This document shows positions 2-20,352 of a stretch of 64,000 bases of DNA, piece after piece (positions within the stretch are counted from its first letter, which is position 1; the number at the start of each line of letters is the position of its first letter). A program made the position numbers and the translations under genes. The notes beneath the pieces were generated by a model, which saw only the letters and a list, made by a program, of their open reading frames with translations, had not been told where the DNA came from and did not search any database. The stretch comes from an uncultured Actinomycetes bacterium (GTDB lineage Bacteria; Actinomycetota; Acidimicrobiia; IMCC26256; BP-133): the NCBI GenBank assembly GCA_963723985.1, contig CAVRTC010000003.1:55914-119913 (forward strand), given 5' to 3'.

Positions 2-570
2 CACGAGAGCCCGGCCCGCCGGGCCCGACTCGGGCTGGGCCGCACCTTCCAGCGGATGGAGCTGTTCGGTTCACTGACGGTGCGGGAAAACGTCGAGCTG
101 GCCGCCGAGGCCGCCCACATCGGCGACGACCCGCTGACCCAGCTCGGGATCGTCGGCGGGCGGGGCAAGGTCCGCCGGGACGTCAGAGCCATCGCCGACG
201 AGCTGATCGAGGAGACGGGGCTGGCAGCGATCCAGAACCGGCTTGCGTCGGAGATCTCGGCCGGCCAGGGCCGCCTCGTCGAGCTGGCCCGGGCACTAGC
301 CAGGGGGCCAACCTGCTCCTCCTCGACGAGCCGTCGTCGGGCCTCGACGTCGCCGAAAGCGCCGAGTTCGCCCAACTGCTCGTCCGCCTCGTGGAAGACC
401 GCGACCTCGGGATCCTCATGGTCGAACACGACATGAGCCTGGTCCTCACGATCTGCCAGTGGATCCACGTCCTCGACTTCGGCAAGCCGTTGATGAACGG
501 CACGCCGGAGCAGGTCCGCAACAGCGACGCGGTCCGAGCCGCTTACCTCGGCCAGGAAGGCGCGGCGTAG
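2..570 (+). CDS. ABC transporter ATP-binding protein, LivG-like (5' end outside window; 1-nt frameshift near 310)
   Basis: Frame starting at 2 reads ..GLGRTFQRMELFGSLTVRENV..ISAGQGRLVELARALARGP. The next frame continues NLLLLDEPSSGLDV..ILMVEHDMSLV..AAYLGQEGAA*. Q-loop, signature, Walker B and H-loop appear in the canonical order across the shift. Confidence 0.8.
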   Translation, partial: REPGPPGPTRAGPHLPADGAVRFTDGAGKRRAGRRGRPHRRRPADPARDRRRAGQGPPGRQSHRRRADRGDGAGSDPEPACVGDLGRPGPPRRAGPGTSQGANLLLLDEPSSGLDVAESAEFAQLLVRLVEDRDLGILMVEHDMSLVLTICQWIHVLDFGKPLMNGTPEQVRNSDAVRAAYLGQEGAA

Positions 571-1412
571 CGCAGGCTCAACCCAGGTGCCACTCCCCGA
601 CGACCTTTACGTAACGGCTGAGCCGTACGAGAATCGACCGTCCTTCCGATAAGTCCGAGGTGCGGATCGTGTCGAACTGAACCATCCGCCCCAGCGAAGG
701 GAACGGTCCCAACGGCGCAATCCTCTACTGGCCCTTCGCTGAACTGGTTGGTGCTGGCGTGCACATTGATTTGTTCCCGGCACCGGGCCTCCGCGACCCG
801 TTCGGGCCGGCAGGAGCGGGCTGGTGATCTGGGGATCTCGGGCGACCTACACCCGCGCGGACCCTCTCGTTAGATGCGCTAGTCCTCTACCTCGCCCAGG
901 AAGACGCCGCGTCACATGGTAACCCGGGTGCCGCTGACCTAAGTCCTTTACGGTAACGCCAACGCCGAACGAGAATCGCCCCTCGCACCCCCATCCATCC
1001 GGGGTGCCGATCGTGGAGACGTTACCCAGCCAGCTCAGACGTTCAGATCCACCGGTATATCGGCCGGTGAGCGATGGGCTGGAGGTGTTCCTCGCCGTCG
1101 CGAGGTGACGATGGAAGGCGCAACCCAGCACCACAGCCGAGGTTGCTGCATAGCTCGAACGACTCACCTCGCCCAGAGGTCGCGGGTCCCTTGACATGTC
1201 GAGGCAGTACGCTATAAGTTCGAACGACGTGATGGACAAACTCAAGGACCGAGAGCCTCGGGAGGCGTCCTTCGGGAGCCGGTGGAGGCCGCGTTACCTC
1301 ATAACGTTTATTGGCTAGTGACCGCGCCACCTCATCCACGATCGGCGTCGACGGCGGCCTCTTGACGACGCGCTAGGCCCCATGCTCGCCGCGACACCGC
1401 CAAGGAGGCTCT
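544..1412. repeat. Three degenerate tandem units (~280-340 bp) seeded by the 3' end of the ABC ATPase gene
   Basis: Unit heads are at 544 (TACCTCGGCCAGGAAGGCGCGGCGTAG), 888 (TACCTCGCCCAGGAAGACGCCGCGTCA) and 1165 (CACCTCGCCCAGAGGTCGCGGG). By eye, units 1 and 2 align at about 70% over ~140 nt (AACCCrGGTGCC..CCTTTACG..CGAACGAGAATCG..GGTGCsGATCGTG). Confidence 0.5.
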
Positions 1413-2622
1413 ATGTCGCAGACCGCCGTCGCCGATCCCGTCCCGGTCATTGAGGACCTCAGCATCTACATCGTGGGGGGGCGTGCCGACCCGAAGTTCG
1501 CCATTCCCCAGGCGATGGAAGCAGAGCGCCTCGGCTTCCGGCGGGTGTGGTTCTGCGAGCGGCTTAACTTAAAGGATGCGGGCGTCGTCCTCGGTGCAAT
1601 CGCGGCCAAGACGAGTCGCATCGAGATCGGTACAGCGCCGGTGACGGCTATGGCGCGTTCGCCGGTCGTCACTGCGTCGATCGGAGCAACGGTCCACACC
1701 GCCTTTGGTCCTCGCTGCATCCTGGGTCTGGGGCGGGGCCCCGCGGGCCACATCGCGGCATACGGCAACCCGGGCGCTACCTATGCCCAGATGGTCGAAT
1801 ACGTGGAAACCATACGGCGGCTGTGGCGAGGCGAAACCGTCTCCTACCACGGCCCGTCCGGCAGCTTCTCGGAGGCGACACTCCCGGACACCTACGACGG
1901 GCCGCCGCCGGAAGTCTGGTATGTCGGCCTGGGTGGACCCAAAGCATCGAGGACGAGCGCGAACACGGTGTTCGACGGAATGATGCTGGGTCCACCGGCT
2001 ACGCCTGAAGCCGTGGCGCAAAGCGTGGCGTGGGCGCGGGAAGAATGTGAGCGCCTCGGACGCGATCCGGCGAGCCTTCGGATTTGTGCGGGGGTGGCCG
2101 CGGCGCCGCGGGTCGAGGCCGTCGGGGAAGATGTGGCGTCGATGACGAACCCCGCGTACGGCTCGCAGGGGTATGTCACCCCCGAAGGCCTTCGGGGTTT
2201 CCTTTGCCTCATCCTCAACACCAAGGACGCGGTCGCGCCCGGCGGCATCATCGAGCGCAACGGTTGGAAGCGCAAGGACATCGACCGGATCGTGGACCAT
2301 CCAGTCGCTCAGGAGATCATGGCCGCGGCTCGCGCCGCCGGAAAGCGCGTCGAACTCGCCGACCAGGCGGTTCGGGACCGAACCCTGCTGGCACAATGGG
2401 CGGCGGAGATCCCGGACTCGTGGCTTCAGGACCGCGTTCGCCATCGGATCGGCACGCGAGTGCGTCGCGAAGCTTCAGGCCTATCGCGACGCCGGCGCCG
2501 ACGAGGTCGCCATCTACGTTGCTAGCCCGGCGCAATGCGCTGAGCTGATCGCCGCCTGGCGGAACCGGCCCCAAGCCACGCCCGTCGGTGCAGCTCCAGC
2601 GTCGATAGGGGGCCGCTCATGA
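1413..2622 (+). CDS. LLM-class (luciferase-like) flavin/F420-dependent oxidoreductase, frameshift near 2432
   Basis: N-terminus reads AMEAERLGFRRVWFCERL..ILGLGRG. The family-typical C-terminus AIGSARECVAKLQAYRDAGADEVAIY lies in the +1 frame (ORF 2173..2622). That frame ends in an ATGA overlap with the next gene at 2619-2622. Confidence 0.85.
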
Positions 2623-7940: not shown

Positions 7941-8217
7941 GGCGTGGCGATCCCGGCGAACTCGGCGGACTCGCCACGGAGGGTCGCCCGATGCAGGGTG
8001 GACTTCCGGCAGTCCTGTACCCGCGGACACAAGATCCGGGGGGTTACAGGGTTCAAGTCGAGCATCACTACTGTCCATCAGTGTTGCTGCTGTTGCAACG
8101 CTTTGCGGTCCCAAGGACGACCGCTCAGAGGGATCCTCGACAACGTAATGCGCCGACCCAAATCCGCGACTCGTGGTGGAAGGTGCAGCAACACAGCAAT
8201 CAGCCCCGGAACAGGCC

Positions 8218-8257
8218 GAACACCGACGAACACTGACGAACACCGACGAACACAGTG
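8218..8257. repeat. 10-bp tandem repeat, ~4 copies (GAACACCGAC / GAACACTGAC / GAACACCGAC / GAACACAGTG)
   Basis: Read directly from the sequence, with exact 10-nt periodicity (about one helical turn). Confidence 0.8.
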
Positions 8258-8874
8258 AGCCGAAAACCCATATGCCGCAAAGAATTCGCGCTGATCCGAA
8301 CGGCTGTCGAAAGGCTCAGCGAACTCTAAATCCGCGGGTTCAGGGTTCGTGTGCCTGCGGCCGGGGCTGGATCGCCTGGCCATCAGCCGGGCAGATCGGC
8401 GATCTGCCGGCGAGCATCGGCGACCGCCAGGTAGCCCAGCCCGACCGCCGGTGCCCCGAGGACCGCGAGCATTGTCAGCGCGGCCGGCCGCGACCGCCCA
8501 CTACGGAAAGCGAACCACAGGGAGATCAGGTCGACGGTGTCACGGCCATCCCGAGCCGCAAGGCGACCGGCGCTGCACTCGAGCTCCCGCAGACGCCCGC
8601 CGACATCGCCGCCACGAAGGTCTCGCGTGTTCCCCAGATCCGCAGGACGTACGCGTGATCGACGTCGTCCTCCGGGCGCAGGCCCATGACCCGGACGATC
8701 CCACCGGGCGCGGCGATGGCGTCGATTCCGAACGCGGCACGGGCGGCGTTCAGCACCCTCCCCGCCTCTGATCGGTGGCGGAGGCGTTTCACCTTCGACA
8801 CCCCGAGTCTCATGAGCGAACTGGGCGCGACAGACGTTCGCCACTATGGAGCAACCGCAGCTTCTAGAAGCCAA

Positions 8875-9478
8875 TCAATCGGGGAACTGCTTGTCAGCGC
8901 AGTTCAGCTTGAACCCGTCTACCGAGACCCAGGTTCCATCTTTGATGACGGTGGTGAACCAGCAGGAGTGCTTCTTCGCTGGTTGGCCCTCGACAAACGT
9001 CAATGGCGGCGTGAGACCGCCGAGCGTGTCCCCGTTGATCGTCCAGAGGCCCCGAAGGATAGCTTGGTGGTGGGGGGTTCGACGATGTGGGCGCCAGCCC
9101 TCTCGAGAAGTTTCCCTGAGGCCCACCCCGCAGCGTTTGCACCTGAGGGCTTGACGCCGGTGACGGTTCGGATGGCCTGCTGGAACTCGTCCGTGGCTGG
9201 AGTGCCGGACTGGAATGGAGGGAAGACACCATGACCGACAATCATGTTGTTCAGGTTCGGGTCTTTCGCCAACTCCTCGTGGGCGGTAACCGAAGGTGCG
9301 CTGAAGATCGGACGGTAACCTTGTCTGGCCCGACACGGTGGCCGACGCCGACATCTGGCCGAACACGTAACGGATCACCATCGTCGGCCCACCCGGCGTC
9401 GCCTGCTCCTGGCGCACGACCAGGCCCGGGCTCACGACCCTTCTCCGAGAACCCGACCGTCTGGCCGGCGATCGTCAT
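8875..9478 (-). pseudogene. Fragment (C-terminal ~200 aa) of a LIV-type ABC substrate-binding protein, several frameshifts
   Basis: GTPATDEFQQAIRTVTGVKPSGANAAGWASGKLLERA and ILRGLWTINGDTLGGLTPPLTFVEGQPAKKHSCWFTTVIKDGTW parallel the intact SBP (37451..39001) IIEGLYGLRGETLGGLVPPTTYKRGVPHKDANHCAIPIVIGDGKF. The pieces lie in three frames. Confidence 0.7.
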
Positions 9479-10766: not shown

Positions 10767-10784
10767 TGACCTGCACTTTCTCCG

Positions 10785-10859
10785 TCGGGCTGGGGAGATT
10801 TGAACTCCCGACCTCTTGACCCCCAGTCAAGCGCGCTAACCAAGCTGCGCCACAGCCCG
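10785..10859 (-). tRNA. tRNA-Pro(GGG): tRNA-Pro, anticodon GGG
   Basis: Manual cloverleaf, 75 nt with no encoded CCA: acceptor CGGGCTG/CAGCCCG, D stem GCGC/GCGC, anticodon stem CTTGA/TCAAG with loop CTGGGGG, T stem GGGAG/CTCCC with loop TTCAAAT, discriminator A. Confidence 0.95.
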
Positions 10860-10860
10860 T
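10818..10860. repeat. Left copy of a perfect 43-bp direct repeat (tRNA-Pro nt 1-42 plus 1 nt upstream)
   Basis: GACCCCCAGTCAAGCGCGCTAACCAAGCTGCGCCACAGCCCGT is identical to 15406..15448. Confidence 0.95.
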
Positions 10861-10938
10861 TACTTCTGCAACACTCAAAAGCTTACTGGCTAATACACAA
10901 GACTACTCGAACAACATCTGTGTCCGAAGGCCGTCACG

Positions 10939-10963
10939 CAGACGACCATTGAGACGACCACAG
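10939..10963. repeat. 25-nt motif CAGACGACCATTGAGACGACCACAG (contains GACGACCA twice); second copy at 15291
   Basis: 24/25 identical to 15291..15315. Both copies lie just inside the 43-bp repeats, in the same orientation. GGGTGGCTCAGAC also recurs, at 11041-11053 and 15283-15295. Confidence 0.8.
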
Positions 10964-11240
10964 CATACTGAGCGAGCGCGCAGGACGGCCGCGGCCGACA
11001 CCTCGCTACACCGTCGAACCTTCGAGCTCGCCTACGCCGCGGGTGGCTCAGACACCGTTGGTTCCGCTCACCAATAGGTCAAGACTTCGTTGTGCACAAA
11101 GGGATTGAGGGTCCAACCGATCGGACGCGGGCTACCGAGTGGGGGTCGGCGCTTACCCTCTTGTCCGGGCCGCCCGCAGCCGACGCCCGGCGTACCGGGG
11201 CCGAACGCCGGCGCGGCGCGCTTGATGGGAAGTCAAGCGG

Positions 11241-12071
11241 TCAGCCGAAGAGCGGCGCCTGTTCTGTGGAGGCACGTCGGGGCTGGTCCGCCGGAGGCCG
11301 GCTGATCTCGGAAAGCGGCGCCGAAGGCGCTTGGAGCGGAGGTTGTCTGTCCAGGCTGGCTGCCCAGGCCCGGATCTTCCCGTTGGGGTCGCCCGCGGCG
11401 CGGCTGGTGACGGCTTGTGCTCCGTCCCGTACAGCGAGGAGTTGGAGGGCCCGGAGCCGGGCGGGGGCTCCCGGCCAGGAGCAGCCGAGGTCGATCAGTG
11501 CCTCCCGGACCTCGTCCGGGTAGCGATCGGCGGCGTCGAGGAGGCCGGCAAAAACAGCGTCACCGGCCCGGGCGTCCAGTTCTCTGGCCCGGTTGAGAAT
11601 GTCGTGGCTGCGGGACGGGTGGCGACCGACGACCGCTGCTGCCCAGCGCCGCAGGGGCGGGGCGATCAACCGCTCGAGGTGAAGGGGGGTGCCAGGCGGG
11701 AGGGCCGGGCCGTCGATGGTGCCGGCGCGATCCCTGATCCAGGCCTCGGGGACGGGCCAGCGGTACTGGTCCGACCAGAGGAAGCCGTTGGCGAACCCTT
11801 CGAGTTCGGCTTCGGTGAGCAGGCCGCTCTGCTCGACGGCGGCGACGAGTGGAGCGGTGACCCGCCGCCAGCGATGGTCGGTGCAGAGCAGGCCGGCCGT
11901 CTGGATCGCCCCGTCCGGACGGCCGCGGTGGAGCCTTCGCCAGACGGTAATAGCGTCGGTCGGATTGGGGGACGCCCGGAGGTGGGGGTGGAAGACCAGC
12001 CATCGCCACAACTCGTCCGGGGTGGCCGCCGTGAGGATGGCCGCCACGTCCTCCGCCACCGACGGGATCAT
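11241..12071 (-). CDS. Hypothetical protein (276 aa), helical-repeat-like
   Basis: Only the C-terminal 276 codons of ORF 11241..13838 look protein-like (MIPSVAEDVAAILTAATPDELWRWLVFHPHL..DPNGKIRAWAASL). It is divergent from the gene at 12213. Confidence 0.55.
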   Translation of the reverse strand: MIPSVAEDVAAILTAATPDELWRWLVFHPHLRASPNPTDAITVWRRLHRGRPDGAIQTAGLLCTDHRWRRVTAPLVAAVEQSGLLTEAELEGFANGFLWSDQYRWPVPEAWIRDRAGTIDGPALPPGTPLHLERLIAPPLRRWAAAVVGRHPSRSHDILNRARELDARAGDAVFAGLLDAADRYPDEVREALIDLGCSWPGAPARLRALQLLAVRDGAQAVTSRAAGDPNGKIRAWAASLDRQPPLQAPSAPLSEISRPPADQPRRASTEQAPLFG

Positions 12072-12212
12072 CGGCCCAGCACAGTACCGTCGTGGCTCCC
12101 CGCCCGAGCGGTTCATTGCGGGCCGGCAACACCACGACGCGCTCCGTCCACGTCCGAACCCACGCTGTGCCGTCGGCGGGCACGCTCGAGCGGGATCGAT
12201 AGGCTCGGCGTC

Positions 12213-14000
12213 GTGACGCGGAGAGGACGCCACGCCAAGGGCGGTCGGGTGACGCCGAAGGGAACACGACCCCTGGGTTTCCGGCCGCGCCACGAGGAGC
12301 GGCGCCCCGAACCCGACGCCGACGACTTGATGGCGGACGTGCGCCGGGCGCTGGGCGACGACCACCCGCTCGGCCTTTTGGCGTTCGCCAGTTCGCTGTT
12401 GACCGTGGTCGATCCCCGGCGGGTGAGCCCCATGGAGCGGGATCGCCTGGCCGGCCCGTCCCGCGAGGAACTGGTCGGTTCGTTCTTCGAGGCGGAGCAA
12501 CTCGAGACGTCGGCACTGCTGGCGGCGATCGGCGTGCTGGGCGGCGACGAGGTCGAACGGCGCCGGATCACCAGGACGCTCGAACGGCGGGGCCACCCGC
12601 TCCCGGCGTGGATCGCCACCGCCAACGGAGCCGAGGCGACGGGCGCGGTGCAGATGACCCACCTCCTGCGCGACGGCGACAACCTCATGATCGGCGTCCG
12701 TCTCCCAACCGGCGAAGAGCTGAGCGCCGTGATCTACATCGACCACAACCTCGGGACGGTCGTGAAGGATGCCTTCGTCGTTCCCGAACCGCTCCACGAT
12801 CTGGTGGCCTTGACGAAACGCAAGGACACCGATCCGGACATGATCTGGGGCGACGTCGATCCGGCCGACGCCAAGGTCCGGATCACAGAGGCCGTCGCCA
12901 CCGGCGCCATGACCTTCCCGCCGTTCGAGACCGACACCTGGCCCGTCTGCCGACCCCTGGTCGAGTGGATGACGAGCCTGCTCCCCGACGGGGGAACCGG
13001 CTACCAGCGACCAGAGTGGAGCGAGGACGATCGCCTCGCCCTCACCGAGCGGTTCTTCGCCTCGCCGTTCGCCGCCGGACTCGACGACCCCGACCACCGC
13101 GACCTGTTCGACTCGCTCCTGTGGTTCGGCTGCGACTACGGGCCCGGCGACCCGCTCCGGTGGAGCCCCCCGGCGGTCGAGATCATCCTCCTCGACTGGC
13201 TCCCCCGCAAGATCGTCGCCGACACCGACTACCTGGCCAAGGCCCCCGGGCTGCTCCGGGCCTTCGTACGTTTCGCCCACGCCGAGCGAGCCGTCCCCGC
13301 CCACCTCACCGACCAGACGATCGAGGCGGTCGATTCCTTCGAGGCCGAATGCCAGACCACCATCCGCTCTGACCGTCCGCAGGGCCCAGCCGCCCTCCTC
13401 GCCGCGCTCGGCGTCGTCGACCCCGACGGCCCCTGGGGAGCCCCCGCCCCTTGGGAAGCGAAGCTCGCCGACGCCCGAACGGGGCTGCTCGACTGCCTTC
13501 GCCGGGCCGTCGGCGGCGAGGACGGCCTCGCCAACCTGGACGATGCACCACTGCCCGACGAGCCGTTCGACTGGAGCGGGATCGACGATGACATCCGACC
13601 CAAGGTCGCCGAGATCCTGGACCTCTGCGACCGGCACTGCACCGACCTGCTCGACACCGAGTACCGGACGGTCAGTCGCCGGGTCCTGGCCCGCATCGCC
13701 CGCCACGGCCCAGACGCCTTCCGCCGCCGGGGACGGGCCGACACCGCCGCTGCCGCCATCTGCTGGGCGGTCGGCCGGGTCAACGACCTCTTCATCCCCC
13801 GGCGCGGCGGCCTGACCCAGAAGGACTTCTTCGCCCACCTCGGCGTCTCACAGACCAGCATCCCGGCCCGAGCCGCCACGCTGCTCGACGCCGGCGGATT
13901 CCCCCGCCACCCAGCCGACTTCACCCTCGGGTCCTCCGACTACCTCGTCTCCACCCGCCGCCGCCACATCATCGACACACGCGACCGGTACCGCCCCTGA
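12213..14000 (+). CDS. Hypothetical protein (595 aa), basic N-terminus RRGRHAKGGRVTPKGTRP
   Basis: In-frame GTG at 12213 within ORF 11331..14000. The downstream 595 aa have a normal, non-repetitive composition; the upstream part is Arg/Gly/Pro shadow sequence. Confidence 0.65.
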   Translation: MTRRGRHAKGGRVTPKGTRPLGFRPRHEERRPEPDADDLMADVRRALGDDHPLGLLAFASSLLTVVDPRRVSPMERDRLAGPSREELVGSFFEAEQLETSALLAAIGVLGGDEVERRRITRTLERRGHPLPAWIATANGAEATGAVQMTHLLRDGDNLMIGVRLPTGEELSAVIYIDHNLGTVVKDAFVVPEPLHDLVALTKRKDTDPDMIWGDVDPADAKVRITEAVATGAMTFPPFETDTWPVCRPLVEWMTSLLPDGGTGYQRPEWSEDDRLALTERFFASPFAAGLDDPDHRDLFDSLLWFGCDYGPGDPLRWSPPAVEIILLDWLPRKIVADTDYLAKAPGLLRAFVRFAHAERAVPAHLTDQTIEAVDSFEAECQTTIRSDRPQGPAALLAALGVVDPDGPWGAPAPWEAKLADARTGLLDCLRRAVGGEDGLANLDDAPLPDEPFDWSGIDDDIRPKVAEILDLCDRHCTDLLDTEYRTVSRRVLARIARHGPDAFRRRGRADTAAAAICWAVGRVNDLFIPRRGGLTQKDFFAHLGVSQTSIPARAATLLDAGGFPRHPADFTLGSSDYLVSTRRRHIIDTRDRYRP

Positions 14001-14004
14001 CTGC

Positions 14005-14478
14005 TCAGGTCGGCAGGCGACTGGCCATGAGGTCATGGCCGTCCAGTTCGCCGACCCGGATCCAGCCGTCGTCGGAGAGGAGACGCCGGCTTCGGTCGTT
14101 GTCGGGGTGGACGAGGGCGACGATGGCGTCGCCCTCCCTTTCGATGGTGACCAGGTGGGCCTTGGCAGCAGTGAGGACCGCCCGCCCTGTCCCCTGGTGC
14201 TGGTGCTCCAGGGAAACGGCGAGCACCTCCAGCCAGATTCCCTCGACGTCAACCCGGACGATGTCTTGCCAGGCGAACACGGCGATCAGTTCGTTGGCCT
14301 CGTCCTCCACCACGTGCAGGTTCCGGCGCTGGAACGCCGCGTAGGGCAGGTCGTGGAGCCAGGCGAAGGCCTTCCGGTTGATCCAGCGCTCCACGTCGTC
14401 CTCGAATAGCTGGCCAGTCGAGCAGCGGAACCGCTTGAGGCGTCTCGAGTCGGCGGTGACGGCTGGGCGGTGATTCAA
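14005..14478 (-). CDS. GNAT family N-acetyltransferase (157 aa)
   Basis: AcCoA motif A: VLAVSLEHQHQGTGRAVLTAA. C-terminal LVHPDNDRSRRLLSDDGW. N-terminal FRCSTGQLFEDDVERWI. The TTG start at 14478 overlaps the upstream TGA (GTTGA junction). Confidence 0.75.
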   Translation of the reverse strand: MNHRPAVTADSRRLKRFRCSTGQLFEDDVERWINRKAFAWLHDLPYAAFQRRNLHVVEDEANELIAVFAWQDIVRVDVEGIWLEVLAVSLEHQHQGTGRAVLTAAKAHLVTIEREGDAIVALVHPDNDRSRRLLSDDGWIRVGELDGHDLMASRLPT

Positions 14479-15188
14479 CCGACGAGGAGGACGTCCCGAT
14501 CGAACCGGCGCCGTTCGTCGCCCGTCAGCAGCCGAGGCTTTCCCGGAACGCGTACGTGGCGATCGCCCTGAAGTTGCATCGCCGGCCGCACCCACATGAA
14601 GGACGACCGGCCGTCGAGGGTCTCGGCATCGACTGCGACGTGAGCACCGAGCGCCCCCACACTCGCCGGCTCTGCAGGAACCGGTATCCCCAGGCGCAGA
14701 CCGTCCTCCGTTTCCACCACCGCCAACTCGCCGACCCGTCCAACCACCGTCCCCGTCGAGCACCGGACCTGCAAACGGGCCGCCAGTTGCTCACGCCGGC
14801 TCGCCGTGAGCAACGCAAAGCGGCTGAGAGCACCGCCCGTGAGCGCATCCAGTTCGGCACCGTCGGGAACCGATCCCGACGCAACCAGCCCTTCCGAGAC
14901 GAACCGCGCCGCCCGATGGGTAACGAGTTCGTTCGCCTGCCCGAGGACCACCGAGGCGGCGTCAACATCGCCACGCCGGTAGAGGCGGGCAACGTCGAGC
15001 ATCAGCGCCGAATACCAGACGGACCGGCCGCGCGCCGCGCTCTCCGCGCGGGTCACGACGGACAGCCCGACGCCGCCAAGGCCGTTCTCCCGCAAAGTAC
15101 GCAGCGCAGAGTCGGGTCGCAGCCGACCACCGGGCCGCAGGACTGCGGCGATTTCCGCCGAGGTCGTGAGAGGAAAGGGCAGGATCAC
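14475..15188 (-). CDS. Hypothetical protein (237 aa), translationally coupled to the GNAT gene
   Basis: Clean ORF with ordinary composition. Its stop overlaps the GNAT start. No recognisable domain. Confidence 0.6.
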   Translation of the reverse strand: MILPFPLTTSAEIAAVLRPGGRLRPDSALRTLRENGLGGVGLSVVTRAESAARGRSVWYSALMLDVARLYRRGDVDAASVVLGQANELVTHRAARFVSEGLVASGSVPDGAELDALTGGALSRFALLTASRREQLAARLQVRCSTGTVVGRVGELAVVETEDGLRLGIPVPAEPASVGALGAHVAVDAETLDGRSSFMWVRPAMQLQGDRHVRVPGKPRLLTGDERRRFDRDVLLVG

Positions 15189-15290
15189 AACACAAGTCTA
15201 CCCTGAAACAGCGTTTCGCTGGTTCAGAGCCGGCTCGGCCGGACTGGCAAGCCCGAGCGGCGAGGCGCGCCCTGCGAGGAGTGGGTGGCT

Positions 15291-15315
15291 CAGACGACCA
15301 TCGAGACGACCACAG
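15291..15315. repeat. Second copy of the 25-nt GACGACCA-containing motif
   Basis: CAGACGACCATCGAGACGACCACAG, directly preceded by GGGTGGCT. Confidence 0.8.
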
Positions 15316-15405
15316 GGCAACGCTGTGACCTGCGGCGATAGTTACAAGATTGGTATTTTGGCTGCTCAGGGCGGTTCCGGGCTGTCCCTGTCGCCGTGCG
15401 CCTAC

Positions 15406-15448
15406 GACCCCCAGTCAAGCGCGCTAACCAAGCTGCGCCACAGCCCGT
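15406..15448. repeat. Right copy of the 43-bp direct repeat: an orphan 5' half of tRNA-Pro
   Basis: Identical to 10818..10860. The sequence to its left (CCGTGCGCCTAC) does not continue the tRNA 3' half. Confidence 0.95.
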
Positions 15449-15510: not shown

Positions 15511-15756
15511 ATGCCCAAGAGCATTCAAATACGCGACGTGGACGACGAGGTCTATGCCGCTCTCACCCGTCGGGCGGCGGAGGCCGGGTTGTCGGTGCCG
15601 GAGATGCTCCGTCAGGAGGTGACCCGGTTGGCGGCCCGGCCGACGGTGAAGGAGTGGCTCAGCCGAACGCGCCGGCGGCCGTCGGAGATCACGGCGGCGG
15701 AGGTGCACGCCGCGCTCGACGAGTTGCGGGGGCCGTGGCCCGATGATCGTGGTTGA
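15511..15756 (+). CDS. vapB: Type II antitoxin, VapB/FitA-like (ribbon-helix-helix)
   Basis: MPKSIQIRDVDDEVYAALTRRAAEAGLSVPEMLRQEV is typical of plasmid-stability/FitA-type antitoxins. Overlaps the PIN gene by 14 nt. Confidence 0.85.
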   Translation: MPKSIQIRDVDDEVYAALTRRAAEAGLSVPEMLRQEVTRLAARPTVKEWLSRTRRRPSEITAAEVHAALDELRGPWPDDRG

Positions 15757-16135
15757 CGCCTCGGTGCTCTTCGAGGTCGTCGCCGACACGCCCGGAGCCG
15801 AGCCGATCCGGGAACGTCTCGCAGCCGACCCCGACCATGCCGCTCCCCATCTCATCGACGTCGAGGTCTTCGGCGTCATCCGCCGGGAATGGCTCCGGGG
15901 GGCGCTCGACTCGACTGCCGCTGGTCAGGCGGTCGCCGATCTGCGGGACTGGCCCGGCGAGCGGTACGGCCATCGCCAGCTACTGGAGCGGGCCTGGGAG
16001 CTCCGCGACACCGTTCGAGGATGGGACGCCGTCTATGTCGCCCTGGCCGAAGCCCTCGACGTTCCGCTCCTCACCACCGACCGCCGCCTCGCCGCTGCCC
16101 CCGGCCCGGCCTGCACCATCGAAGTCGTTCCCTGA
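15743..16135 (+). CDS. vapC: Type II toxin, VapC (PIN domain ribonuclease)
   Basis: MIVVDASVLFEVV.., with acidic residues at D5, E/D ~40 and D ~95, and ..LLTTDRRL near the C-terminus. Confidence 0.9.
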   Translation: MIVVDASVLFEVVADTPGAEPIRERLAADPDHAAPHLIDVEVFGVIRREWLRGALDSTAAGQAVADLRDWPGERYGHRQLLERAWELRDTVRGWDAVYVALAEALDVPLLTTDRRLAAAPGPACTIEVVP

Positions 16136-16193: not shown

Positions 16194-17111
16194 CTACCGG
16201 TACTCCTCCACGACGAGTGACCATCCTTCGTAGGAGCCGGATCCGCCGCTGTTGAAGAAGGCCCGCAGGTTCCACTGGCCGGGAGCGACGTGTCGCTCGG
16301 CCTGCACGACGTCGGGGCAGTCCTGGTAGTACGGGGCCGGCTGGTTGGAGTACAGGGTGGCTGAGGCGCAGCCCGGGCCGCCCTCCGCCGGGTTCGCCAC
16401 CGGCTCTTCCAGCCACACCTCGGCGATGTAGGACGGCGGCTGAGGGCCGAGAGGATCGTGCAGCCATTCCTGCCCGTCGTGGAAGACCCTGAGCCGGACG
16501 TGGCCCGACTGGAGGGTCACCGGCCGCGTGTCGATGTGGAACTCGTTCCACCACGCGAAACGCCCAATCTCCACCCAGGTCGCCGCCGCCGGAACCACCG
16601 TGGTCGTGGTCGTGGTGGTCGGGGCAGCCGTCGTGGTCGTGGTGGACTTCGGCTTCGTCGTCGTCGGCGTCGAATTCGGCGCCCCGGTGGTCGTCGTCGA
16701 CGGCGATGCCGTCGTCATCGTCGGTCCGGCCTGACCCCCGGCCGGTGTCGACGTCTGGGTTGTCGACGATGATGGCGACGAAGGCGATGACGGCGCCGAT
16801 CCCGTCGTGCTCGTGGCCCCACCGCCACCCGGGGACGTTTCCGGTGTGCTCGAGCCGGAGTCCTTCTCCTTCGACGCTCCGCCCTTCGAGCGGTCTTTCT
16901 GCCGCCCCGACGGCGCGTCCGGATCGGGCAGCGTCGTCATCCACGACAGCTCGGAGCTCACCGATGTCGGCGTGGTGCTCCCGCCGAACTCCAAGCCCGT
17001 CTGCACCTGCTCCGACTCCGATTCGTCCGGTACACCGACGGTCAGTGTCAAGCCGACGAGCAGCGCGAACAGAGCGGCAACAACGACGAGAAGCCAACGG
17101 CTGGGGTTCAC
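16194..17111 (-). CDS. Membrane-anchored surface protein with a Thr/Ser/Pro-rich linker and a ~130-aa C-terminal globular domain
   Basis: N-terminal TM WLLVVVAALFALLVGLTL, a long TTTT/PS low-complexity linker, then WVEIGRFAWWNEFHIDTRPVTLQSGHVRLRVFHDGQEW.. Confidence 0.65.
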   Translation of the reverse strand: MNPSRWLLVVVAALFALLVGLTLTVGVPDESESEQVQTGLEFGGSTTPTSVSSELSWMTTLPDPDAPSGRQKDRSKGGASKEKDSGSSTPETSPGGGGATSTTGSAPSSPSSPSSSTTQTSTPAGGQAGPTMTTASPSTTTTGAPNSTPTTTKPKSTTTTTAAPTTTTTTTVVPAAATWVEIGRFAWWNEFHIDTRPVTLQSGHVRLRVFHDGQEWLHDPLGPQPPSYIAEVWLEEPVANPAEGGPGCASATLYSNQPAPYYQDCPDVVQAERHVAPGQWNLRAFFNSGGSGSYEGWSLVVEEYR

Positions 17112-18075: not shown

Positions 18076-20352
18076 CTACGCCGCCGGCACCCCTCGCCGG
18101 TTCTCGCCGAAGAGCAGGTCGGTGGCGCCGACCTGGCTGCGGGCCCGAACCAGCGCCACGAACTCGTCGGCCGGCACCGGCTTGCTGAACAGGTAGCCCT
18201 GCATCTCGTCGCAGCCCCGGGCGGCCAGGTAGGCCAGTTGGTCGGCGGTCTCGACCCCTTCGGCGATCACCTTCAGGCCGAGGCTGTGACCAAGGGCGAT
18301 CACGGCGGTGACGATCGTGTCGGAGCCGCCGGACAGCTCGGTGATGAAGGACCGGTCGATCTTCAGGCCGTCGATGGGAAGGCGGTTCAGGTAGCTCAAC
18401 CCGCAGTAGCCCGTCCCGAAGTCGTCGATGGAGCACGTCACGCCCACGGCCCGCAGCTCCTCGATCTGCTGCACCGTCACCTCGAGGCTCTCGAGCGCCG
18501 CGCTCTCGGTCAGCTCCAGCTCCAGGGACCGGCCGGGGATGCAGGCCATGCGCAGAACGCTCGTCACGTACTCGGCCAGGCCCTGACGGAGCTGGCAGGG
18601 CGACACGTTGACCGCCACCGTGAGGTCGGGAAGCCCGTCCATCCGCCAGGCGGCGACCTGCTCGCAGGCGGCGGCGATGACCCACTCGCCCAAGGCCCCG
18701 ATGAGCCCGGTCTGTTCCGCCAGCGGAACGAACGAGTCGGGGAACAGCAGCCCCTTCTCGGGATGGTTCCACCGGACCAGCGCCTCGGCGCCGGTGACAC
18801 GGCCCGTCCGCAGGTCGACCTTCGGCTGGTAGTGCAGGACGAACTCGTCGGCCTCGAGGCCCCGGCGGAGCGCCGCCTCGAGGGCCAGGCGCTCGTTGGC
18901 CTCGTGGCGCAACGCCGGGCTGAAGATCTCGAACGTGTTCCGGCCCCGTTCCTTGGCGACGTACATCGCGGCGTCGGCGCCCTCGACGACGGTGTCGGCC
19001 TCGTCGCCGTCCTGGGGGAAGAGGCTGATCCCGATGCTGGGGCTCACCACCACCGCCTGGCCGGCGATCTCCACCGGGTCGGCCAGGGAGGCCAGGAGCC
19101 GGCGGGCCACGGCCACCGCCCCCTCGATGCCCGCCACGTGCGGGAGCAGGAGGGCGAACTCGTCGCCACCGAGCCGGGCGACGGTGTCCTCGTCCCGCAG
19201 GCACGCTTGCATCCGCTCCGCCACATGGCGGAGCAGCTCGTCGCCGGCGGCGTGACCCAGGCTGTCGTTGACCTCCTTGAACCGGTCGAGGTCGACGACC
19301 ATGACCGCCACCGGCAGGCCGTTGCGACGGGCGTGGGCCAGAGCCCGGGACAGCCGGTCACTGAAGAGCATCCGGTTGGGCAGGCCGGTCAGACCATCGC
19401 GTTCGGCGCGCCGTTCGATGACGCTGCGCTGCAGCAGGAGGCTGCCCAGGTAGGCGGCCAGGACGACCGAGGCCACGCCGGCACCCAGGGCCGGGGCCGG
19501 GGGGATCGCCTGCTGGCGGATGGCATGAATGGCGATCACGGCCGGCGGGGCCAGCATCCCCATCTGGGTGAGCACGAGATGGGCGGCGCTGAAGCGGGCG
19601 GGCTCCCCGATGAGGGGCTCGAACAGCCGCCGGGCGCTGGGGTCGAGTGCCGTGACCGCCAGCAGAGCGAAGGCCACCACCATCAGCGCCGACACAACCC
19701 CGTTGGACAGGCCCTGGCCGTTGAAGAGCGCCAGGGCCGACGCCAGGTGCGCCCCGAAGAGGAACCCCAGCCCGAGGGCCGTACCCCGGTAGACGAAGAT
19801 CCGCTCCCCGGGCAGGAGCAGCAGGTGGACGGCCAGGGTGAGCAGGAGCAGGTCGAGAGCCGCCAGCGCCACCGCCAACTCCGCCCCGCCGAGAGGGATT
19901 CCGAGCCGGATCCGGGCCGGGCTGACCAGCACCCACAGCCCGAGGGCGAACGTGGTGGCCACCAGTCCGGCCTGCACGAGCACGTCGGCCGCCCGGTCGG
20001 GTAGCCGGGCGCTCTGCAGCCGCAGGAGCCCGACGATCAGCAGCGGGTAGGCGACGAGCCCGACCGTGCGCAAGCCCGCTCCGGCGCGGGGGCCGGAGCC
20101 GATGCCGGCGTTGGTGAGCGCCAGCACGGCCACGCCGACGGTGAGGAACAGGCAGGGGTCGATCCAACCGGCGGGGACCCGGGGCGGGCGGGGACGGCGG
20201 TGAAGGACGAGCCCGAAGGCCATGGCGGCCGCGGTCGGGACCCCGGCGGCGGGAATGGGCCCGAACCCCGCCCCGAAGAACAGGCCGGCGGCCAGCACGA
20301 GCGCGCCGGCCACGGCCAGGACCCTCGAGGCAATACCGGAGAGGTTGTCCAC
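18076..20352 (-). CDS. Membrane-bound GGDEF-EAL protein (diguanylate cyclase/phosphodiesterase)
   Basis: About 9 N-terminal TM helices. GGDEF domain (LTGLPNR..VVDLDRFKEVND..ARLGGDEFALL). EAL domain (EALVRWNHP..DDFGTGYCGLSYLNRLPIDGLKIDRSF). Confidence 0.9.
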   Translation of the reverse strand: MDNLSGIASRVLAVAGALVLAAGLFFGAGFGPIPAAGVPTAAAMAFGLVLHRRPRPPRVPAGWIDPCLFLTVGVAVLALTNAGIGSGPRAGAGLRTVGLVAYPLLIVGLLRLQSARLPDRAADVLVQAGLVATTFALGLWVLVSPARIRLGIPLGGAELAVALAALDLLLLTLAVHLLLLPGERIFVYRGTALGLGFLFGAHLASALALFNGQGLSNGVVSALMVVAFALLAVTALDPSARRLFEPLIGEPARFSAAHLVLTQMGMLAPPAVIAIHAIRQQAIPPAPALGAGVASVVLAAYLGSLLLQRSVIERRAERDGLTGLPNRMLFSDRLSRALAHARRNGLPVAVMVVDLDRFKEVNDSLGHAAGDELLRHVAERMQACLRDEDTVARLGGDEFALLLPHVAGIEGAVAVARRLLASLADPVEIAGQAVVVSPSIGISLFPQDGDEADTVVEGADAAMYVAKERGRNTFEIFSPALRHEANERLALEAALRRGLEADEFVLHYQPKVDLRTGRVTGAEALVRWNHPEKGLLFPDSFVPLAEQTGLIGALGEWVIAAACEQVAAWRMDGLPDLTVAVNVSPCQLRQGLAEYVTSVLRMACIPGRSLELELTESAALESLEVTVQQIEELRAVGVTCSIDDFGTGYCGLSYLNRLPIDGLKIDRSFITELSGGSDTIVTAVIALGHSLGLKVIAEGVETADQLAYLAARGCDEMQGYLFSKPVPADEFVALVRARSQVGATDLLFGENRRGVPAA

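Follow-up and report, generated by a model that had tools for sequence, protein, structure and literature searches.

A putative autorepressor translationally coupled to a GNAT acetyltransferase: a candidate toxin–antitoxin module at the edge of a tRNA-Pro islet

We analyzed a 64,000-nt stretch of DNA from an uncultured Actinomycetes bacterium (contig CAVRTC010000003.1, positions 55,914 to 119,913), hereafter called the window (64 kb), whose coordinates are used for the locus described here. On the minus strand of the window lie two overlapping genes (Table 1), one encoding a 237-aa protein that we call A and the other a 157-aa acetyltransferase that we call GNAT, which may together constitute a type II-like toxin–antitoxin module, for addiction or defense, of a family not yet described. 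We give this reading, in which the toxicity of GNAT and its binding by A are predicted, about an even chance. The window sequence confirms the pair of open reading frames (ORFs) as originally predicted, including a TTG start codon that overlaps the upstream TGA: the plus-strand letters tcaac at 14475-14479 read GTTGA on the minus strand, so that TGA and TTG share 4 nt. The GNAT reading frame is open from 14763, and because its homologs are 156-157 aa long and conservation starts exactly at the TTG at 14478..14476, we assign the gene to 14005..14478 (157 aa). Of the 46 related loci with both genes, 37 show the same type of overlap, RTGA, in which a GTG or TTG start lies over the TGA of A, at identities down to ~47%, and GTGA or TTGA overlaps recur in distant A-like/GNAT pairs. 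This conservation is far above chance, fixes the start of GNAT, and bears out the proposal that the two genes are translationally coupled across the family. We infer that the 4-nt overlap is the site of termination-reinitiation coupling.

The promoter region of A is conserved in its layout as well. A palindrome with the consensus CTGAnnCnGCn-N3-nGCnGnnTCAG is present in 51 of 53 distinct regions upstream of A, at a fixed distance from the start, and in the aligned upstream regions it is followed after 2-4 nt by a TAnnnT hexamer and, 6-8 nt further on, by the start codon. The 64-kb window contains one match only (0.19 expected), and each of 52 loci, including loci without GNAT, has a single copy, immediately upstream of A. 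In distant A-like families, the 11-3-11 geometry is retained together with the -10 box and the spacing, whereas the half-site is a different one, CCGAcnCCGCA; a half-site that changes with the protein subfamily is as expected if the A-like protein itself reads the site. A scan of the region for consensus sigma-70 promoters and terminators gave no match, the sigma-70 scan being empty because there is no TTGACA-type -35. From the spacing of palindrome, hexamer, and start codon, we infer a leaderless bicistronic mRNA with a putative operator over the -35/spacer region.

How faithfully do the two genes travel together? Homologs of A (n = 71, alignment A1) and of GNAT (n = 32, alignment A2) come from Acidimicrobiia-type metagenome-assembled genomes (MAGs) and metagenomes; every A homolog is unannotated, and the GNAT homologs are likewise unannotated relatives only. 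Both families are undescribed and unannotated in public databases, and we found no description of the A/GNAT pair in the literature. Among 67 loci gathered using the alignment of A homologs, ~46 have a GNAT homolog directly downstream of A on the same strand. Conversely, all six GNAT homologs that were checked independently on their own contigs have upstream, with a 4-nt overlap, a ~235-aa gene, which is an A homolog wherever its DNA could be compared. The co-occurrence of the partner with GNAT in other genomes, on which the original prediction hinged, is therefore seen from both sides, as well as in the distant pairs described below, and the bicistronic operon is conserved as a pair in varying contexts, as in generic type II modules.

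The loci in which the pair is no longer complete are also informative. Among those in which the A ORF is intact and the downstream sequence is long enough to judge, GNAT is intact in ~29, frameshifted, truncated, or partly deleted in ~10, and absent from seven; one of the ~10, L034, carries a true in-frame deletion by which A has been joined to the C-terminal part of GNAT. In no surveyed locus did we find a clearly intact GNAT beside a destroyed A. There is one frameshift in L015, whose MAG we guess from contig naming to be a long-read assembly, and both genes are decayed in L060. Since the losses of GNAT are dispersed among close relatives, for example L047 vs. L049, they have been repeated and recent. 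The idea that the C-terminal tail of A is less conserved where GNAT is missing was ruled out, the tail/body identity ratio being 0.96-0.98 in all three groups compared. The possibility that two long apparent A or GNAT ORFs, in L058 (504 aa) and L004 (297 aa), represent Rosetta-stone fusions was discarded, the long frames being artefacts of the high GC content.

Protein A has no match in Pfam, NCBIfam, PADLOC, or PHROGs. The AlphaFold2 (AF2) model computed from the family alignment, with a mean predicted local distance difference test (pLDDT) of 84 and a predicted template modeling score (pTM) of 0.78, has a modular architecture (Table 1). Two arginines, R30 and R33, are invariant and lie on the second helix of the N-terminal unit, the predicted topology of which we read as that of an excisionase/MerR-like winged helix. 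A Foldseek search of the PDB returned no whole-chain match to A, the best matches being ModE, a regulator composed of a winged helix and a β-barrel (E 0.014), and OB/SH3-like barrels. Comparisons of the N terminus with helix-turn-helix (HTH) families, by a PDB profile search and by a Pfam scan of 24 N-terminal domains, were not significant, and the same held for excisionase-type HTH sequences of the same loci when compared by hhalign. Because of these results, we treat DNA binding by A as a prediction, which is based on the topology and the operator. While the partner was originally described as having no recognizable DNA-binding motif, this is probably wrong, since its first 60 residues are predicted to be winged-helix-like and the gene is accompanied by a conserved palindrome, even if no HTH similarity is significant. 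A resemblance of residues 126-189 to the archaeal RNase P protein Rpp29/MTH11, a possible link to tRNA, was set aside as not significant (E 0.055 and 0.12) and no more specific than other small-barrel matches.

A is part of a much wider set of proteins. An exhaustive profile search for A-like proteins yielded 173 cluster representatives at E ≤ 1e-3, most of them ~260 aa long and matching profile positions 1 to ~210, with tails that differ; the named members, from Baekduia alba, a Baekduia sp. MAG, and a Streptosporangiaceae MAG, are all "hypothetical protein." In three distant subfamilies (P0121, P0140, and P0143), a GNAT follows with a 4-nt overlap. The distant subfamilies are 22-29% identical to one another (alignment A7) and match the A1 profile at E 1e-13 to 1e-18; the GNATs of the distant pairs, one of which passes Pfam Acetyltransf_3, are 24-32% identical to that of the window, with the motifs F-x-C-S-x-G...ED-V-E and VH-x-D-N-x-R-S in common. 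In two other relatives, P0116 and P0129, the match to the A profile covers positions 1-207 (E 3e-24 and 3e-16), and the C terminus holds, in place of the tail, a VbhA antitoxin domain (27.2 and 33.3 bits, against a Pfam gathering threshold of 25.9). This domain contains SLAAEG or SLRAEG, that is, the S/T-x-x-x-E-G/N Fic-inhibitory motif, and both genes stand beside Fic genes. Because of these VbhA-fused relatives, we consider that the A scaffold serves as an antitoxin chassis with at least one other kind of toxin, and since the tail is the part that is exchanged, for VbhA in two relatives, we propose the C-terminal tail of A as the element that would neutralize GNAT.

The arrangement of the VbhA fusions is a point in itself: they are convergent with the Fic gene and overlap it (442..1362 and 1232..1882 in L086, by 130 nt; also on the P0116 contig), which is unusual for a toxin–antitoxin pair, and the low-complexity end of the fusion ORF may be over-called. 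In L077, a reverse transcriptase gene (RVT_1, 496 aa, 152..1642) and a 112-aa ORF (1650..1988) are divergent from a solitary A-like gene; the reverse transcriptase may belong to a group II intron or a retron-type element.

As for the acetyltransferase, its membership in the GNAT superfamily is clear, both the fold and the acetyl-CoA loop being present. It matches Pfam Acetyltransf_1 (PF00583) with E 1.4e-5 and 25.8 bits, against a cut-off of 20.7, and its AF2 model (pLDDT 91) has a standard GNAT fold, to which >500 PDB GNAT chains match at E ≤ 1e-3. The normal acetyl-CoA motif that had been reported is there, with Q93, H94, G96, and G98 of QHQGTG invariant, and so is the N-terminal stretch FRCSTGQLFEDDVERWI, exactly as first written. 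Residues C19 and S20, in the motif FRCSTG...EDDVERWI, do not vary within the family, and conservation is high among the acceptor-side residues. Neither GNAT nor A has a match in PADLOC-DB v2 at E ≤ 1, and GNAT has none in PHROGs.

In the original prediction, the N-terminal stretch was taken to resemble the corresponding segment of the TacT/AtaT/KacT toxins, which leads to the reading that GNAT is an aminoacyl-tRNA acetylator of this type whose DUF1778 antitoxin has been swapped, as in DUF4065-GNAT pairs; antitoxin replacement is documented in this toxin family (PMC9177977). The motifs do align. FRCSTG...VERWI aligns in hhalign with FDCG...LxxWL, so that F-x-C-[GS] and the next helix correspond to the FDCG...L-x-x-W/F-L of DUF1778-linked toxins, and Foldseek lists TacT3, AtaT, GmvT, and TacT with template modeling (TM) scores of 0.65-0.73 and the lowest values of root-mean-square deviation (3.4-3.9 Å). 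The kinship, however, was not supported. The whole hhalign alignment of A2 with five GNATs adjoining annotated DUF1778 genes, taken from plasmids, is not significant (probability 2.3%, E 0.02), and the A2 hidden Markov model (HMM), searched against all PDB sequences, matched no TacT, AtaT, KacT, ItaT, or GmvT at E ≤ 10. The structural scores of the toxins (E 1e-7 to 4e-6) are indistinguishable from those of housekeeping GNATs, the same search listing SpeG, phosphinothricin acetyltransferase, an Hpa2-like enzyme, RimI, and Naa10/50. We read the F-x-C-[GS] alignment as a resemblance only. In the five toxins, the F-Y pair of the motif N-x-x-A-x-x-F-Y-x-x-x-G-F is invariant, and KacT Y145F is an inactive form (PMC6698736). 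In contrast, GNAT has L134 at the position of the catalytic Tyr, and the residue is Leu or Met in 20 of 20 family members. The family is moreover acidic, with a median isoelectric point (pI) of 5.0 and a net charge of -11, vs. a median pI of 8.7 for the five toxins, and canonical DUF1778-type GNAT toxins with the FY motif are separate genes in the same islands. We conclude from these comparisons that GNAT probably falls outside the TacT clade and that an aminoacyl-tRNA substrate should not be assumed, and we consider the TacT-type reading improbable.

The canonical TacT-like toxins that share islands with the A/GNAT module (FDSG...LDDWI, FYERFGF) are encoded at 1374..2081 in L047, 12530..13213 in L054, and 1530..2177 in L010. 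In L047, the toxin gene follows, at a distance of 256 nt downstream, an A gene whose own GNAT has been lost.

Our reading of A and GNAT as a toxin–antitoxin module follows from the coupling of the two genes, the putative promoter operator that travels with A, the repeated loss of GNAT only, the mobile contexts rich in toxin–antitoxin genes (see below), and the VbhA-fused relatives. In the mechanism that we propose, a dimer of A would bind the 25-bp palindrome over its own promoter through the N-terminal winged-helix-like domain and thereby repress the leaderless bicistronic mRNA. GNAT would be made only by ribosomes that terminate at the stop codon of A and restart at the overlapping TTG or GTG, and would therefore never be present without A or in excess of it. 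A would bind and silence GNAT, the most likely contact being tail residues 206-237, at the position that VbhA occupies in two relatives. Should A no longer be replenished, upon islet loss, transcription shut-off, or proteolysis, free GNAT would acetylate a cellular target with acetyl-CoA, and growth would stop. Because GNAT is acidic, has no Tyr as general acid, and is not detectably related to TacT, aminoacyl-tRNA is not the default target; on its sequence, a basic protein or a polyamine-like amine would seem at least as likely.

Several observations weigh against a toxin–antitoxin module. Neither protein matches any of the PADLOC or PHROG families; L134 replaces the catalytic Tyr of the known toxins, and the GNAT family has none of their basic character. 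The winged helix of A is assigned from predicted topology, with HTH comparisons that are not significant. The tail of A is conserved equally well in loci without GNAT, and A, being large and multi-domain, may have a function of its own. A distant A-like relative, P0119, is solitary and adjoins glpK. The retention of A upon loss of GNAT, finally, is also expected if GNAT is a harmless accessory gene.

These points converge on the main rival explanation, which is that A is an autoregulated DNA-binding regulator with its own role, either in the control of islet genes or in sensing via its barrel or helical domains, and that GNAT is a harmless enzyme modifying a protein or a small molecule such as an antibiotic, a polyamine, or a phosphinothricin-like compound. 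It would account for the best Foldseek matches of GNAT, namely SpeG, phosphinothricin acetyltransferase, the Hpa2-like enzyme, and RimI, for its acidic pI and its lack of the toxin-type Tyr, for the loci in which A is intact and both operator and tail are conserved in the absence of GNAT, and for the solitary A-like relative. However, strict 4-nt coupling behind a repressor, kept across subfamilies of ~25% identity, is unexpected for a resistance or metabolic enzyme, as is the fact that GNAT was never seen without the repressor in the six cases checked. The VbhA-fused relatives beside Fic toxins point instead to an antitoxin scaffold, and toxin–antitoxin and defense genes consistently abound around the module. 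This explanation thus leaves the ancient coupling and the VbhA/Fic relatives unexplained, and we regard it as rather unlikely, if serious. Extending the toxin–antitoxin reading to the relatives, we tentatively view the A-like proteins, with somewhat less than even confidence, as an undescribed, Actinomycetota-wide superfamily of modular antitoxins/autorepressors, built from a winged helix, a helical linker, a small β-barrel, and an exchangeable tail, each controlling a leaderless operon under its own 11-3-11 palindrome. Most would be coupled to an acidic, Tyr-less clade of GNATs, toxins with a target other than aminoacyl-tRNA, and some would present a VbhA helix to a Fic toxin.

The genomic context accords with a mobile module. 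The pair sits at the edge of a small islet bounded by tRNA-Pro(GGG) and a partial copy of it, A starting 217 nt inside the distal repeat (Table 1). The original prediction of a tRNA-flanked islet next to vapBC was accurate as to the repeat-bounded edge and the adjacent vapBC; there is, however, a single tRNA, the only one that ARAGORN found, the other end of the islet is a partial copy of 43 nt, and vapBC lies outside. A candidate tRNA-like RNA upstream of A was rejected, as it is the exact 43-nt copy of the tRNA-Pro 5′ part, where Rfam and ARAGORN find nothing. In the window islet, the repeat corresponds to the 5′ part of the tRNA rather than the usual 3′ part, and other loci repeat tRNA 3′ ends. 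No integrase was recognized within the 4.5-kb islet. For its two other genes, 889-aa and 865-aa ORFs are listed, which overlap on opposite strands and are probably over-extended. Beyond the islet, the chromosomal neighbors include a 305-aa protein that is rich in Thr and Pro, has a hydrophobic segment at its N terminus, and matches nothing in Pfam (16194..17111, minus strand) and a GGDEF-EAL membrane protein (18076..20352, minus strand; E 5e-50 and 1e-75).

A 93%-identical locus, L020, has the same islet arrangement as the window, and in L026, L050, L054, and L055, A is found, with or without GNAT, in islets bounded by tRNA-Arg or tRNA-Gly and a 43-57-nt copy of its 3′ end. In L012, L024, and L031, A comes directly after tRNA genes. 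The genes flanking A/GNAT are not conserved; in other loci they include tyrosine integrases, a relaxase, Fic proteins, PIN/CcdA, PhdYeFM, and VapBC-like pairs, a DUF1778-type GNAT toxin, IS1595, DUF262, and DndB. Across loci, the module is hence found in mobile islets rich in toxin–antitoxin genes, in keeping with the toxin–antitoxin/defense context initially suggested. Searches of phage and plasmid collections with A and two distant relatives (tblastn) gave no match, nor did scans of IMG/VR for the GNAT family (A2) or for the distant A-like family (A7), and there is therefore no sign that the module is phage- or plasmid-borne. Two arrangements stand apart. In one lineage (L068, 3959..4588; also L069 and L070), a gene for a 209-aa Hypoth_Ymh protein (PF09509, E 5.4e-12) overlaps the end of GNAT by 8 nt and might serve the module as an additional effector or sensor. 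In L016, 224 nt separate an A homolog (8001..8654), whose match to A begins only at residue 39, from an opposite-strand transfer-messenger RNA (tmRNA) gene (8877..9261), which suggests an element integrated at ssrA.

The proximity of A to islet boundaries raises the possibility that it serves island maintenance, as an excisionase-like recombination directionality factor or an islet repressor beside the att site, with GNAT as incidental cargo. Its position 217 nt inside the boundary or directly after tRNA genes, its presence in repeat-bounded islets in five further loci, and the excisionase/MerR-type topology that we read into its predicted N terminus would fit. The palindrome, however, is on the promoter of A and not at the att repeats, many loci, including the window islet, have no integrase near A, the hhalign comparison with excisionase-type HTH sequences is not significant, and the conserved coupling to GNAT would go unexplained. 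We consider this explanation quite improbable.

Table 1. Features of the A/GNAT locus and its islet, in window coordinates
Feature	Coordinates	Strand	Details
Gene A, putative autorepressor/antitoxin	14475..15188	-	GTG start at 15188, TGA stop 14477..14475; ORF call
GNAT acetyltransferase, 157 aa	14005..14478	-	TTG start 14478..14476, stop 14007..14005; Pfam, 32 homologs, alignment
4-nt stop/start overlap TTGA	14475..14478	-	TGA of A over TTG of GNAT; window sequence
25-bp palindrome (11-3-11), putative operator	15203..15227	.	CTGAACCAGCG-AAA-CGCTGTTTCAG on minus strand; over -35/spacer of A promoter
-10-like hexamer TAGACT	15195..15200	-	2 nt past palindrome, 6 nt ahead of GTG
A residues 1-60, winged-helix-like (predicted)	15188..15009	-	AF2: β-β-α-α-β-β unit
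A residues 62-139, helical (predicted)	15005..14772	-	AF2
A residues 141-205, small β-barrel (predicted)	14768..14574	-	AF2
A residues 206-237, low-confidence flexible linker and C-terminal helix (223-236) (predicted)	14573..14478	-	AF2
tRNA-Pro(GGG), intact	10784..10859	-	ARAGORN; Rfam 65 bits
Proximal repeat copy, islet boundary	10818..10860	-	5′ 43 nt: position -1 and 42 nt of tRNA-Pro(GGG)
Distal repeat copy, islet boundary	15406..15448	-	43-nt exact copy, -1 through anticodon loop
Repeat-bounded islet, ~4.5 kb	10861..15405	.	Between the two tRNA-Pro repeat copies
Islet gene, ~319 aa, no family match	~11241..12200	-	
Islet gene, ~556 aa, C-terminal DUF6398 (E 1.9e-14)	~12330..14000	+	
vapBC: FitA-like ribbon-helix-helix (RHH) antitoxin (E 5.6e-7)	15511..15756	+	Just outside islet, divergent from A
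vapBC: PIN toxin (E 1.6e-10)	15743..16135	+	14-nt overlap with antitoxin gene

If GNAT proves to be toxic, A would be the third type of antitoxin to be paired with acetyltransferase toxins, the first two being DUF1778 and DUF4065, and the chemistry of the clade, with no Tyr as general acid, an invariant Cys-Ser pair, and an acidic surface, would suggest a new target. The A family would also be a useful case of antitoxin modularity, in which one predicted DNA-binding chassis is either coupled to GNAT or fused to a VbhA Fic inhibitor. The palindrome, the predicted leaderless start, and the RTGA overlap together provide a simple diagnostic for both families, and the module marks small, integrase-poor islets at tRNA genes in the poorly studied Acidimicrobiia.

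Among the closest known systems are the DUF1778 (RHH)-GNAT systems, TacAT, AtaRT, KacAT, ItaRT, and GmvAT, which likewise have an upstream partner overlapping a ~160-aa GNAT, a palindrome on the promoter, and a mobile location, and with which the F-x-C-[GS] motif aligns. The C-terminal region of their antitoxins neutralizes the toxin (PMC6698736), the role that we propose for the tail of A. Unlike their antitoxins, A is a 237-aa multi-domain protein with no RHH/DUF1778 domain, and GNAT is acidic, has Leu for Tyr, and has no significant relation to their toxins. The pairs of a DUF4065 (PanA/SocA-like) protein and a GNAT, which form clade C within the TacT-type "true TA clade" (PMC9177977), set a precedent, in that their GNAT toxin works with an antitoxin that is not of the RHH type and was gained via gene shuffling. 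In contrast to these pairs, A has no DUF4065 match, and its GNAT has no detectable relation to that clade. The VbhA-VbhT/FicTA systems are connected to A through P0116 and P0129, which carry VbhA with S-x-x-x-E-G at the position of the A tail and adjoin Fic genes. The A of the window, however, has no VbhA and is paired with a GNAT instead of a Fic protein, and the Fic gene of the relatives is convergent rather than downstream in an operon. Finally, in the type IV, abortive-infection system AbiEi-AbiEii, the antitoxin has >200 aa, with an N-terminal winged helix that autorepresses via inverted repeats and a separate C-terminal neutralizing part. Although A has no AbiEi Pfam match and AbiEii is a nucleotidyltransferase rather than a GNAT, the two systems would have in common an enzyme as toxin and a large antitoxin of the build that is predicted for A.

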